From positions 1 through 51,165 of the forward strand of contig JAUSGI010000007.1 of NCBI GenBank assembly GCA_030649135.1: 51,165 nucleotides of DNA, written 5' to 3'. The position numbers and the translations under genes were made by a program. This document shows, piece after piece, positions 3,667 to 51,165 of the stretch. The notes beneath the pieces are model-generated. The model saw only the letters and a program-made list of their open reading frames with translations, did not search any database and was not told the DNA's origin. Each line of letters begins with the position of its first letter. The stretch's first letter is position 1. The stretch comes from a bacterium. GTDB taxonomy: Bacteria > Patescibacteriota > Minisyncoccia > Phycocordibacterales > Zambryskibacteraceae.

Positions 3667-4146
3667 TTATTTGAAAAAGTTGAGCAGTCTACTAAAGAGT
3701 CCCATTTTCTTCATCGGCTTTGGTTGTTCACTTACTAAATTGTTTATTGGTGAACTCGAACCTGTCTCTATCTTTGGGTCAACAAGAGATTGCGATTTTC
3801 CTACAGGTATCTTTTTCACTTCCTTAATCGGAGCAGATTTGGTAGGTTTAGGTTGAGTAGTTTTTACACTAGGTATAACTTTTTGCTGAACTGGTTGAAT
3901 AATCTTAGGAACAATAACTTCAGGAATTGCTTCGGGGATATACGGGAATTCTATTATTTCTCCACACATTTTCATAGAAGAATAAGAGACGCTACTCTTT
4001 CGCCAGCCGTCGTTACAAATTACGCTCCCATCGCTGTCTGACCCCGCAGCACAACTTACTCCTCCGTGACCAGAACAAGCTCCACTTGCTGAAAATACGA
4101 GCACTGGAAAGAAAATTACCAAACTTAATATCAATATTTTTTTCAT
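3667..4146 (-). CDS. Secreted hypothetical protein (signal peptide, Cys-rich head, Pro/Lys-rich tail)
   Basis: N-terminal MKKILILSLVIFFPVLVFSASGA signal peptide and a 6-Cys segment. No recognisable domain. Confidence 0.5.
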   Translation of the reverse strand: MKKILILSLVIFFPVLVFSASGACSGHGGVSCAAGSDSDGSVICNDGWRKSSVSYSSMKMCGEIIEFPYIPEAIPEVIVPKIIQPVQQKVIPSVKTTQPKPTKSAPIKEVKKIPVGKSQSLVDPKIETGSSSPINNLVSEQPKPMKKMGLFSRLLNFFK

Positions 4147-48191: not shown

Positions 48192-48442
48192 TCTTTTCCT
48201 AAAGCCTCAAAAGTTTTTCTGTATTCTTTGGTAGCTTTTTCTACCGCCTTTTCAATGTTGCTTTTCTTTTCATTTCCGAGCGACTTGCCTAGAGCTTCTA
48301 ACAAATCCTCATGTGCTACAATATAATTCCTGCCAACTTTTTCTGCTTTTATTTTCCCATTTTTAATACGCTTAAAGACCCCGACACGAGTCATGTGCAT
48401 TATGTTGGCAACCTCAGATGTAGAGTAATATTTTGGGTTCAT
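48188..48442 (-). CDS. Putative antitoxin with N-terminal HTH (excisionase/MerR-like)
   Basis: 4-nt overlap with doc. YSTSEVANIMHMTRVGVFKRIKNGKI is an HTH. Confidence 0.65.
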   Translation of the reverse strand: MNPKYYSTSEVANIMHMTRVGVFKRIKNGKIKAEKVGRNYIVAHEDLLEALGKSLGNEKKSNIEKAVEKATKEYRKTFEALGKE

Positions 48443-48896
48443 ATTTGTATGTTAACATATGTTAACTAACAAGCAAGCAGAGCTACCAACGCATAATGTA
48501 TATTGGGTCGGGCACTGTCCGGAGTTATAACCGTACTCGAGGACAGGGGTTATATGGTTACGGTACGCGAAAAAATCAACAATATCAAGCGCGTTGGGAA
48601 GATTTATGACTTTCCGATGCCCTACCAGCAGAAATAGCCAACTCACCCCAAGTCACCCTAACTCACCCGTTTTTGGCAAAAGTCCGGTCCAAAACCATTT
48701 CACCTTATCCCACCAGTAGCCACCGGTTTTGAGCAAAAGTTCGGAATAAAATCACTTAACCGCAACTAACCTTATCTAACCGTTTTTTGCCCAACTATTT
48801 GCCCCGGTGGCGAGCTTTGTGCCGAGGATCGACGTTTGTACCCACCTTGGCACATCAACCACCCGTTTGACCAAATTTGAACCCTTGGGACGATTT

Positions 48897-48916
48897 GCTT
48901 AATTAAGCAAATATGA
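48897..48916. repeat. 20-bp perfect palindrome ATTTGCTTAATTAAGCAAAT immediately downstream of RT stop
   Basis: Seen directly in the sequence. It closes a 480-bp non-coding region that contains degenerate ~60-bp tandem repeats (ccg/gttttg-caaaagt-cgg). Confidence 0.7.
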
Positions 48917-48921
48917 CCGAC

Positions 48922-49935
48922 TTAATTGGAAGATTTGGGCTTGGACGCTTTGTCGATAATCTTCTGTCGCAATTTCCAGCTGTTGCCATGGCTCATAAGA
49001 CCGAGATACGACTGCACCGTTTCTTCCTTTCCGTCCTTTGCCTTTATATTCCTAAACATCCTCTTTTTGGTTGTCGTCCTTAAGACTTGATGATCCGGAA
49101 AATGCACCCAGCCGAGAAAGTCGACACCCGAAGCGACAGTCTGTATGAAAATCTTATCCGGATGCATGGAGAGCTTGAGCTTGTTTCCTAAAAACTCCTG
49201 CATCGCCGGCAGAATGGTTTCAAGGTACGCCTTGTCCGTCGAAAGGACGGCAAAATCGTCAGCGTAACGCAGATAATATTTCGCTTTGAGGCGATGCTTC
49301 ATAAATTGGTCGAATTCGTTCATGTAAATATTTACCAGAAGCTGGGACGTTAGATTGCCGAGCGGGAGTCCGATGCCGACAGCGTTTGAATGAAAACTCC
49401 GAACGATGACAGATAAGAGATGGAGAATATCTTGATCGGGAATATATTTTGCAGATATGTCCAAGAGAATCGCGTGATCGATGTTTGCAAAAAACTTTCT
49501 GATATCGCATTTGAGCACCCATACCGTCCGAACGTTGTTCTCTGAAACAATGCCGATGAATTTTCTGAATCTGCTGAGAGCTCGATGCGTACCTTTTCCG
49601 TCTTGGCAGGAATTCGAGTCGGAGATAAACGTTTTTGCGAAAAATGGCGACAGTTGCCTATGCAATGCGTGATGTAAAAGCCGGTCTCGAACACTTGCTT
49701 TGTGGATGTCGCGCGGCTTAGGATCGGCGATCTTGAAATGCTGATACGCAGAATGGGTGTATGTTTTCGCCACAAGTTCGCGGTGAAGCGAGATAATGTT
49801 CGTCATCAGATTTCGCTCGAATTCTTGCACATCTTTGCGCGACCTTTTTCCGCGCACGAATTCTTTCCACGCTTCGAGGAGATTTTCGAGCGAAATGATA
49901 TGATTATATGTATGTTGAAATTGGATTCTGGACAT
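48922..49935 (-). CDS. Diversity-generating retroelement reverse transcriptase
   Basis: RT motifs 1-7 with YADDFAV. Motif 4 is IGLPLGNLTSQLL (GxxxSQ, DGR-specific, versus QGxxxSP in group II introns). The N-terminus resembles DGR RTs. Confidence 0.9.
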   Translation of the reverse strand: MSRIQFQHTYNHIISLENLLEAWKEFVRGKRSRKDVQEFERNLMTNIISLHRELVAKTYTHSAYQHFKIADPKPRDIHKASVRDRLLHHALHRQLSPFFAKTFISDSNSCQDGKGTHRALSRFRKFIGIVSENNVRTVWVLKCDIRKFFANIDHAILLDISAKYIPDQDILHLLSVIVRSFHSNAVGIGLPLGNLTSQLLVNIYMNEFDQFMKHRLKAKYYLRYADDFAVLSTDKAYLETILPAMQEFLGNKLKLSMHPDKIFIQTVASGVDFLGWVHFPDHQVLRTTTKKRMFRNIKAKDGKEETVQSYLGLMSHGNSWKLRQKIIDKASKPKSSN

Positions 49936-49967
49936 AACATTGAAGTCACCCCCCCCCGCAGAAGCTT

Positions 49968-50330
49968 TTGCCAGTTTTAGGCAAAGTTAAGGAGTCGTAT
50001 CTTTTGTGGTACAAATTTTATCAGGACTTGCCCAAGGTGCATCGTCATTCTCTCGGCCAGCGCATAGACACATTGTTTGTCGAAGTGATAGAAGCGATAT
50101 CGGCCGCCAGTTTTCTCTCGCCTACAGAGAAACATCCGTATGTTCGTCTCGCGATCAAGAAAGCGGACACCCTCCGTGTACTTCTTTTGGTACTCTGGGA
50201 AACAAAATCTCTCGACGATAAGAAATACATCGCTCTTTCCATAAAGTTGGACGAGGCCGGCAAAATGCTCGGCGGTTGGAACGGCCAGCTCGCAAAACAA
50301 AACTCTCCAGCCAAAGCCGGAGAGAAATGA
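49968..50330 (+). CDS. avd: Avd-like accessory variability determinant (four-helix-bundle / 23S-rRNA-IVS family)
   Basis: WYKFYQDLPKVHRHSLGQRIDTLFVEVIEAI...LDEAGKMLGGW fits the bAvd/PF05635 pattern. AAGGAG RBS 9 nt before an in-frame TTG at 50004. It lies on the opposite strand to the RT and TR sense. Confidence 0.7.
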   Translation: MPVLGKVKESYLLWYKFYQDLPKVHRHSLGQRIDTLFVEVIEAISAASFLSPTEKHPYVRLAIKKADTLRVLLLVLWETKSLDDKKYIALSIKLDEAGKMLGGWNGQLAKQNSPAKAGEK

Positions 50331-50336
50331 AGAGAG

Positions 50337-50462
50337 TTGCGACACGGCGAACGCGAACCCGTTGTCACGATTCCACCTGTTGTCAGGCCTGTCGTTGTAC
50401 GCATTAAGCCAGCGACCATCGTCATTACGGTTCGCATTCAGCAAGTTCGGATCGCCGTCGGA
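50337..50462 (-). repeat. DGR template repeat (TR), sense on minus strand
   Basis: 126 bp, ~84% identical to VR at 50809-50934. Minus-sense reading has 8 AAY (Asn) codons. 14 of 20 mismatches to VR fall on TR adenines. Confidence 0.8.
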
Positions 50463-50711
50463 TTGCGCGAAACATCTTCCATATCACCACCCCTCGAATA
50501 CTCTCAGGGTTGAATCGAATCCGGCATCGAAATGCCTTAATGTCTCGCGCCAAGTATCTTCTTTTTTATTGAAGTTTCTGCATGCACCACTCTATCCGAA
50601 ACCGTGGCCGCGGATACTCTCGATGCATGGATACTGGGTTCGGTAGCGGGAAGCCTTGACCGCCCACATATTCACCTACTGCCACGAATATTATATATTA
50701 TTTTATATTTT

Positions 50712-50753
50712 ATGAAAAAATTTAGCCCCATTCCGACGGATCGGAACGGGGCT
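50712..50753 (-). terminator. Rho-independent terminator downstream of DGR target gene
   Basis: Nested hairpin agcccc-a-ttccga-cgga-tcggaa-c-ggggct followed by an AAATTTTTT run on the minus strand. Confidence 0.7.
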
Positions 50754-50769
50754 AAGGACTAAGTTCAAA

Positions 50770-50783
50770 GGGACTGAAGTCCC
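50770..50783 (-). repeat. Short GC hairpin (gggac-ttca-gtccc on minus strand) 7 nt after VR-gene stop
   Basis: This sits where DGR VRs carry the homing-enhancing hairpin. Confidence 0.5.
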
Positions 50784-50790
50784 GAGGATC

Positions 50791-51165
50791 TTAGTGTTGA
50801 GAACTGACTTGCGACACCGCGAACGCGAACCCGTTGCCACAACCCCACCTGTAGTCGGGCCCGCCGCCGTACGCGCAAAGCCAGCGACCATCGTCGTCAC
50901 GGTCCGCGATCAGCAAGCTCGGATCGCCGTCGGAGTCGTTGATGGGTTCGTGCATGGCAACGATGTACCACAGCCCCATCGCTTCGATCTCCTTGTCCGT
51001 GAACTTCTCACGAATGAGGCAGGCCAGTTCGGCGTTCGGCTTCGAGAGCTTGCGCTTGTCGGCCTCGGCGCGAATCTTCTTCGTGATCCGGTCGTTGTCC
51101 TCGAAGAGCATGCCCTTGAGAACGGCGACTTCGGTCGTCACGCCGTTGGTCGGCTTGAAGTCCGG
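50791..51165 (-). CDS. DGR target protein with C-terminal C-type-lectin-like variable module (5' end beyond window)
   Basis: ORF is open to the window edge. C-terminal ...DRDDDGRWLCAYGGGPDYRWGCGNGFAFAVSQVSSQH is encoded by the VR. ~58% GC. Confidence 0.75.
   Translation of the reverse strand, partial: PDFKPTNGVTTEVAVLKGMLFEDNDRITKKIRAEADKRKLSKPNAELACLIREKFTDKEIEAMGLWYIVAMHEPINDSDGDPSLLIADRDDDGRWLCAYGGGPDYRWGCGNGFAFAVSQVSSQH
50809..50934 (-). repeat. DGR variable repeat (VR) at 3' end of target gene
   Basis: Aligns to TR. Asn codons of TR are replaced by Ile/Asp/Cys/Gly/Tyr codons. A shared GC-rich 3' block gggttcgcgttcgcSgtgtcgcaa is IMH-like. Confidence 0.8.

Follow-up and report, generated by a model that had tools for sequence, protein, structure and literature searches.

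The window analysed here is the complete contig JAUSGI010000007.1 (51,165 nucleotides) of a metagenome-assembled genome from the Zambryskibacteraceae (Patescibacteriota; NCBI GenBank assembly GCA_030649135.1). It carries a diversity-generating retroelement (DGR) in which avd, the accessory gene of the reverse transcriptase (RT), is divergent from the RT gene, and the two genes meet at a run of nine cytosines. Comparison with related loci suggests that this run is one form of a hypermutable simple sequence repeat within a translated leader of avd, and we consider slipped-strand translational phase variation of this accessory gene to be the probable explanation, albeit with a good measure of reserve. 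Translation of avd would start at ATG 49912 inside the RT gene and not at TTG 49968, and an extended -10 promoter at 49896-49904 would place the start of transcription at or next to this ATG. A short, disordered leader peptide with the hypermutable repeat would thus be inserted between the ATG and the four-helix core of the protein. Slipped-strand gain or loss of repeat units, which have a length of 1, 2, 4 or 7 nt depending on the lineage, would shift the reading frame, and these shifts would switch the full-length Avd on and off in a heritable and reversible manner. In the Bordetella phage model, Avd is required together with RT for the synthesis of complementary DNA (cDNA), and mutagenic retrohoming itself would be phase-variable only if Avd is needed here as it is in that phage. 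The wider claim, namely that targeted hypermutation is phase-variable across a large clade of Patescibacteria DGRs, with OFF as the commoner consensus state (about 70% of the repeat-bearing loci) and with the effect of a second-order bet-hedging, has in our estimation an even chance of being correct.

Simple sequence repeats at the junction of RT and avd

The nine cytosines (C9) occupy positions 49949-49957 of the plus strand. A preliminary description of the locus had recognized this run at 49950-49958, which is one base off. The tract lies in the leader of avd and would encode Pro-Pro-Pro if it were in frame, but is out of frame in the window. It is the only homopolymer of G or C with a length of at least eight in these 51 kb, and the same C9 was recovered together with an identical RT from an independent Logan assembly of SRR13727527. 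For comparison, 142 related loci were fetched from genomes and metagenomes; an RT is contained in 124 of them, and 121 junctions between the two genes were compared. A simple sequence repeat is present at the same junction position in 99 of the 121 junctions. Poly-C tracts were found in 64 junctions (C7-C13, mostly C9-C10), tetranucleotide repeats with the units AACC, AATC, AGCC, AGTC or AACG in 21 (3-13 copies), dinucleotide repeats of CT, CA or GA in ten (6-21 copies), and heptanucleotide repeats in four (3-11 copies), an example of the latter being (AGCAATC)11 in a junction of 90 nt. Across the junctions, the tracts are 7 to 77 nt long, and the unit lengths of 1, 2, 4 and 7 nt are never a multiple of three. 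Inspection of the units revealed no stop codon in any plus-strand frame, and several units have stops on the minus strand.

The repeats are enriched about 120-fold at this site, with 93 in 6.1 kb of junction sequence versus 80 in 634 kb of flanking sequence. Tetranucleotide repeats were detected 19 times inside the junctions and never in the flanks, and 61 G/C runs of at least eight nucleotides inside the junctions stand against three in the 634 kb outside (120 related loci). In addition, the repeat number differs between samples in four of six pairs of loci whose 200-nt flanks are 100% identical on both sides, namely (TCAG)7 vs (TCAG)5, C9 vs C10, (CA)16 vs (CA)18, and C10 vs C11. A repeat number that differs under identical flanks means that the tract mutates far faster than its surroundings.

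A distant group of loci (L054-L058), with about 35% identity in Avd and about 60% in RT, carries (CT)n as its junction repeat. Here, at locus positions of about 3900-4000 (1500-1570 in L057), the RT frame lacks an ATG ahead of the conserved IISxENL, and the RT-strand (AG)n would be translated as RERE; in this group, the repeat may belong not only to the avd leader but also to the coding region of RT, either within it or at its very beginning.

Translation start of avd

In the NCBI annotation, avd starts at TTG 49968 and is named "four helix bundle protein" (MDO8590105.1, 120 aa). These 120 codons at 49968-50330 on the plus strand correspond to the four-helix-bundle core of Avd. According to the codon comparisons described below, avd most likely starts not at this TTG but at the ATG at 49912-49914 of the same strand, which is antisense to the codon for His8 of RT and lies 23 nt inside the RT gene. 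The two genes would then overlap head-to-head by 24 bp (49912-49935). The divergent spacer of 32 bp reported in the preliminary description is correct as the distance between the TTG and the RT ATG, but probably represents coding sequence of the avd leader.

Many homologues of Avd are called with an N-terminal extension, MLxLNSGHN...PPPx(K/R)ILPVL, that runs antisense across the RT start and through the repeat, and several independent lines of evidence speak against an artefact of gene calling. The position of the annotated TTG is a conserved leucine for which the relatives use all six Leu codons, TTG being found in 38 of 101. The two codons before it are likewise conserved, the first as R/K (AGA, AGG, CGN, AAA/AAG) and the second as I/L, and the synonymous variation in these conserved R/K and I/L codons indicates that codons upstream of the TTG are translated. 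Between the repeat and the conserved leucine, no ATG, GTG or TTG is present in 30 of the 57 distinct out-of-frame junctions. Furthermore, among 69 distinct loci, 62 have His at codon 8 of RT, invariably encoded by CAT and never by CAC, compared with 550 CAT vs 340 CAC (0.61) among the other His codons of the same RT genes (p about 5e-14 for the bias at His8), which points to codon-level selection on the upstream ATG.

The putative avd promoter is the extended -10-like sequence TGATATGAT at 49896-49904 of the plus strand, located in RT codons 11-14 and followed by 7 nt and then by the ATG. Across the relatives, the plus strand keeps TGATATnAT and exactly 7 nt before the ATG; in the 69 distinct loci, the bases from -39 through -31 occur at frequencies of T.99, G.99, A 1.0, T.99, A.97, T.90, n, A.74 and T 1.0. 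On the RT side, Ile13 is encoded by ATC in 67 of 68 loci against a background of 0.32 (p about 3e-32), and codon 12 keeps NAT with an amino acid that varies among N, H, Y and D. We infer from this conservation that 49896-49904 is an extended -10 promoter giving rise to a leaderless or near-leaderless avd messenger RNA. Since leaderless translation is strongly dependent on AUG, the absence of CAC, and therefore of GTG on the avd strand, at RT codon 8 is in keeping with such a messenger. A conserved minus-strand promoter for RT was sought in the first 30 avd codons, where no motif was found and third codon positions vary freely. In the AlphaFold2 model of the Avd homologue P0003, residues 1-18 are disordered with a predicted local distance difference test (pLDDT) score <50, and the helices begin at residue 21; judged by this model, the avd leader would tolerate variable length.

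The automatic annotation of both genes is inconsistent in this clade, to which the repeat and the overlap contribute. Within single clusters of 90% identity (P0001, P0002, P0012, P0013, P0035, P0007), Avd has been called at anything from about 42 to 226 aa, with lengths of 86, 97, 108, 120, 123, 130 and 137-142 aa recurring, and the RT of L144 was called 49 aa short due to the overlapping avd call. In current annotations, avd begins at one or another downstream codon or RT is truncated, and DGR surveys that score loci as "intact" or "broken" by the avd open reading frame (ORF) will misjudge them.

Reading frame and predicted ON/OFF state

The frame was scored relative to the conserved ATG at -23, because scoring any upstream ATG is confounded by extra ATGs in other frames. 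Repeat-free junctions are 18, 21, 27 or 30 nt long, and 12 of 14 share the frame of the upstream ATG, compared with 17 of 57 repeat-bearing junctions (Fisher p = 2e-4). The leader prolines of repeat-free relatives are encoded by the non-slippery CCG CCA CCG, which resembles a C tract locked in the ON state. In-frame poly-C alleles are exemplified by L144 (C8), which reads GTA CCC CCC CCG CAG (VPPPQ), and L145 (C9), which reads ACC CCC CCC CAA (TPPQ).

Translation of the window sequence from ATG 49912 through C9 would yield the 22-aa peptide MLKLDSGHNIEVTPPRRSFCQF and would then stop at the TAG at 49978-49980 of the plus strand, which ends this out-of-frame leader ORF of 22 codons. As computed from the sequence, a C10 allele would give an Avd of 139 aa (MLKLDSGHNIEVTPPPQKLLPVLGK..., MLKLDSGHNIEVTPPPQKLLPVLGKVKESY...) and a C7 allele one of 138 aa. 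We hence predict the window element to be in the OFF state, with weak expression from TTG 49968 at the most.

Out-of-frame loci possess an intact avd core with a median of 120 codons, and 93% of the mismatches between their template repeat (TR) and variable repeat (VR) are at adenines; both properties argue for reversible switching and not for pseudogenes. In the window, the BLAST alignment of TR and VR contains seven non-adenine differences, the most among 92 loci. Moreover, the window TR has AAT at three codons where all close relatives have AAC, and the window VR keeps the C at these positions. This suggests that no retrohoming has taken place for a long time in the window lineage, and such signs of long inactivity fit the predicted OFF phase.

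Weighing phase variation of avd against alternative explanations

A number of observations speak against a frame switch in avd or restrict its scope. Differences in tract length are known between samples and not within one population, and homopolymer differences of +/-1 between assemblies could partly be due to sequencing or assembly error, which does not explain the length differences of tetra- and dinucleotide repeats. The loci are phylogenetically related, so that the p-values overstate independence, and the repeat types may have originated independently as few as 5-8 times. Poly-C loci are in frame in 7 of 31 cases (strict set) or in 20 of 64, which is no better than chance, and selection for the ON state is therefore not visible in this class. 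No promoter was detected in the junction by a standard sigma-70 scan, in which a -35 element is required; the promoter proposed above lacks such an element and, like the leaderless start, rests on a consensus match and on conservation. The codon after the tract is TTG in the window and in 34 of the 64 poly-C loci and possibly serves as a weak start, and a second upstream ATG exists at -40 in another frame in some lineages (L016, L019, L022, L075). Since TTG 49968-49970 is always in frame and C8 or C11 would bring TTG 49940-49942 into frame, the switch in the window lineage may be graded, with three levels and two TTG starts, rather than binary. Finally, the link between the out-of-frame state and non-adenine TR/VR differences is weak (pooled Fisher p = 0.048, per-locus Mann-Whitney p = 0.18).

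Phase variation could alternatively act at the level of transcription, with the repeat residing in a shared divergent promoter or 5' untranslated region and its length tuning RT and/or avd via the spacing of promoter elements. Precedents for such a mechanism are the (TA)n repeat of Haemophilus hifA/hifB and the poly-C tract of Bordetella fim, and the location of our tract between divergent genes, 13 nt upstream of the RT ATG in the window, would suit it. So would poly-G or (AG)n on the RT strand, which could resemble a ribosome-binding site, the repeat of L054-L058, which abuts or enters the N-terminal region of RT, and the in-frame frequency of the poly-C loci, which does not exceed chance. 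Nevertheless, we regard this explanation as unlikely. Tracts of 7-77 nt cannot be reconciled with a -35/-10 spacer, no unit length is a multiple of three, and the codons just after the repeat are conserved as protein with synonymous variation. In addition, codon-level selection is seen at the -10-like motif and at the antisense ATG, both upstream of the repeat, repeat-free junctions retain the frame, and the 5' codons of avd contain no conserved promoter motif on the minus strand. The hifA/hifB and fim tracts thus resemble the junction repeat in being hypermutable and situated between divergent genes, fim also in being poly-C, but they are short, tightly bounded and set promoter spacing, whereas the length range, unit sizes and coding signatures found here point to a frame switch. 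An added effect of the repeat on RT, whose ATG is 8-17 nt away from it across the loci, may exist. The suggestion of the preliminary description that the C tract is a slipped-strand site of phase variation is well supported by the comparative data, the likeliest route being the avd frame and not promoter spacing.

The predominance of poly-C (64 of 99 repeats), mostly out of frame, would also be compatible with recoding at the level of RNA, in which polymerase slippage or a ribosomal +1/-1 slip involving tRNA-Pro on the C run yields a constant small fraction of in-frame Avd and the tract acts as an attenuator. Exactly one nucleotide too many is present in 26 of 54 poly-C tracts, a state that a +1 slip on CCC-C would correct, and such recoding would account for the intact avd and the adenine-specific VR changes of out-of-frame loci. 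On the other hand, the tetra-, hepta- and dinucleotide repeats at the same site are substrates for slipped-strand mispairing of DNA and not RNA slippage sites, and a change in the DNA itself is evident from loci that differ in tract length under identical flanks. We therefore hold recoding as the sole explanation to be improbable; it is not mutually exclusive with a DNA switch, and RNA slippage could add some in-frame product. As a further alternative, the tract could be a neutral mutational hot spot or an assembly artefact, a low-complexity stretch without function in a short intergenic spacer, with avd starting at TTG or its equivalent. NCBI starts avd at the TTG, homopolymers are prone to sequencing errors, and the in-frame fraction of repeat-bearing loci (17/57) is near one third. 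This appears very improbable to us in view of the about 120-fold enrichment of five unrelated repeat classes at one site in >100 independent assemblies, the identical C9 in two assemblies, the use of TTA, CTG, CTA, CTC or CTT at the TTG position in most relatives, the conserved frame of repeat-free junctions, and the codon-level selection on the upstream ATG.

Resemblance to contingency loci

If avd is subject to a frame switch, it would join a group of translational ON/OFF repeat loci that comprises lic1 with (CAAT)n, hgp with (CCAA)n and mod with (AGTC/AGCC)n of Haemophilus influenzae, opa with (CTCTT)n of Neisseria, and the poly-G tracts of Campylobacter. Two properties that define contingency loci were found: a tract of unstable length that alters the frame, its placement in the ORF being supported strongly but indirectly by codon and frame comparisons, and length polymorphism at loci with identical flanks. 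The likeness extends to the position of the repeat in the 5' part of the ORF, to units not divisible by three, to lengths above the usual instability threshold, to the co-occurrence of in-frame and out-of-frame alleles among close relatives, to a region that tolerates different lengths, and to the same kinds of units (CAAT, CCAA/CAAC, AGTC, AGCC, poly-C/G). Contingency loci, however, belong to host-adapted pathogens and concern surface antigens or methyltransferases, whereas the repeat described here occurs in uncultured Patescibacteria and in the accessory subunit of a hypermutation machine. One generator of diversity would thus gate another, by a switch that is predicted here from sequence comparison.

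Identity and architecture of the element

The RT gene at 48922-49935 of the minus strand encodes 337 aa with a match to RVT_1 (E 1.7e-22). Its translation, read by eye, contains LGNLTSQ, which fits [LIV]GxxxSQ, a pattern that we take to be the defining motif of DGR-clade reverse transcriptases. Its relatives show 50-96% identity over 120+ loci. TR (about 50337-50464) and VR (about 50809-50936) were delimited by direct-repeat comparison as 128-nt direct repeats with an offset of 472 bp. Read on the minus strand, 15 of their 21 differences are at TR adenines and six elsewhere, and this bias establishes the RT strand as the sense strand of TR, in agreement with the preliminary description. Other TR-like copies were not found in the window. 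VR forms the 3' end of the target gene (50791-51165, minus strand), which is cut by the contig end and has no Pfam match, and closes the target ORF just before its stop (50791). With a DGR-type RT and an adenine-biased TR/VR pair at the 3' end of a target gene, the window element is a DGR.

The plus-strand ORF between TR and RT had been proposed to be Avd-like, and our results support this. It matches the Pfam family bAvd (PF22296) with an E value of 6.7e-10 and 39.9 bits, the curated cut-off being 40. The search retrieved 1720 homologues, whose named taxa are lineages of the Patescibacteria (candidate phyla radiation, CPR), and PF22296 was precomputed on 120 of 120 among the matches listed. 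A sequence search of the PDB with the Avd profile gave no match, and a comparison of folds was used instead. The model of P0003 (pLDDT 83.9 overall) yielded Foldseek matches to 4dwl (TMt 0.84-0.89), 8ub7 (TMt 0.79-0.85) and 2gsc (TMt 0.88-0.92) and superposes on the Avd of phage BPP-1 (4dwl, 8ub7) with a TM score of about 0.85-0.9. The assignment of the window ORF as Avd-like is based on this BPP-1-like fold modelled for its homologue and on the adjacency to RT in 124 loci. A rival ORF on the minus strand (49977-50444) has no match to any family and does not qualify as a better candidate. The avd stop (50330) is 3-6 nt from the edge of TR, as had been noted with a distance of 6 nt.

Read along the RT strand, the window holds target/VR, TR, avd in opposite orientation, and RT, in this order. 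The inversion of avd, which had been described as a non-canonical layout, is real but not new. RT is divergent from avd and immediately upstream of it in 123 of the 124 related loci that hold an RT, which makes the inverted avd the standard of the clade and not an oddity of the window. In 99 of 121 relatives, a TR is situated near the avd stop, at a distance of no more than about 50 nt and, in almost all of them, of <=25 nt; VR is located about 450-550 nt beyond TR, and 93-97% of the TR/VR mismatches in 99 relatives are at RT-strand adenines. The same order and orientation was designated Architecture B3, TR-(avd)-RT with a reverse-strand avd, and represents 90% of the CPR DGRs in the set of Wu et al. 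2018 (NAR 46:11; PMC5758913). The window element is thus an ordinary CPR DGR of architecture B3 and does not differ from it in layout. In those parts of the text of PMC5758913 covered by our search, a 5' overlap of avd and RT, a junction repeat and an antisense terminator-like hairpin are not mentioned.

The DGR of BPP-1 (mtd-avd-TR-brt) resembles the window element in its RT, which has the DGR motif, in the four-helix bundle of its Avd, in its adenine-specific TR/VR pair and in the location of VR at the 3' end of the target gene. All parts of the BPP-1 element are co-directional, whereas avd is inverted in the window and possesses an extra, repeat-bearing leader relative to BPP-1 avd.

Sequences flanking TR and VR

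A scan revealed a hairpin with a 9-bp stem directly 3' of TR on the minus strand (50293-50324), CTCTCCGGC-TTTG-GCTGGAGAG, followed by the U-tract TTTTGTTTTG. It is antisense to the last 11 avd codons, KQNSPAKAGEK*, and folds with -22.3 kcal/mol (z -3.8). Across 67 diverse relatives, 93.7% of the cells are paired and eight of the nine pairs show compensatory changes; this covariation was reached by none of 500 shuffles, and sliding the partners drops the pairing to 37-64%. An equivalent site is present in about 95 of 100 distinct related loci. The hairpin and U-tract at 50324-50293 are probably an intrinsic terminator of the TR RNA; the hairpin may equally well serve the DGR RNA as a structural element. 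Its location antisense to the Avd tail KQNSP-x-GEK* would explain why this tail is invariant. In BPP-1, the RNA 3' of TR, which comprises the cDNA-priming spacer, runs into brt, whereas in the window it meets a hairpin and U-tract antisense to the avd stop region.

A candidate promoter of the TR RNA, TTTTCA-17-TATAAT, is found at 50690-50718 of the minus strand and points into TR. It was assigned by consensus match, with 10 of 12 positions in agreement. The TR RNA is probably a discrete transcript of about 390 nt from the site at 50718-50690 and not a read-through into RT. The transcript from TR to RT, antisense through avd, that was envisaged in the preliminary description is therefore unlikely to be the main TR RNA, given the covarying hairpin and the U-tract directly after TR. 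The scan detected another hairpin on the minus strand with a GC-rich stem of 15 bp and a T run (50722-50755), just after the stop of the target gene (50791); it could be the terminator of the target gene and/or correspond to the hairpin that follows VR in other DGRs.

Implications

To our knowledge, few regulators of DGRs have been described, and the control of DGR activity is largely open. Continuous mutagenesis would destroy adapted variants, and a stochastic switch in an accessory gene, if it exists as proposed, would be a simple answer to the problem of DGR control in the CPR, a clade that is among the richest in DGRs. A lineage could then freeze a useful sequence of its variable protein and reopen diversification in rare cells. 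The locus would also be an example of dual coding at both ends of avd, with a promoter and start embedded in RT codons and a terminator-like hairpin encoded antisense in the avd tail. The layout is known. None of the literature searched describes the repeat-bearing leader, the head-to-head overlap or the antisense terminator. Specifically, a search for DGRs or avd in connection with phase variation, repeats or frameshifts, which did not include Paul et al. 2017 (Nat Microbiol), returned no report of the junction repeat. Phase variation driven by repeats is well known, and so are DGRs; it is their combination that appears to be new.

Further sequence features of the locus

Rfam models were compared with positions 48400-51165 of the window and gave only a noise-level match to RT-7 (17.6 bits vs a gathering score of 116.8, E 0.31); among 17 related loci, only tRNAs passed, leaving the TR flanks without a known RNA family. 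The 320 bp beyond the RT stop (48600-48920) contain the loosely repeated motifs CCGTTTTTGGC / CCGTTTTTTGC and ACCTTATCCCACC / ACCTTATCTAACC. Adjoining the RT stop, a perfect AT-rich palindrome of 20 bp, ATTTGCTTAATTAAGCAAAT, is located at 48893-48912.

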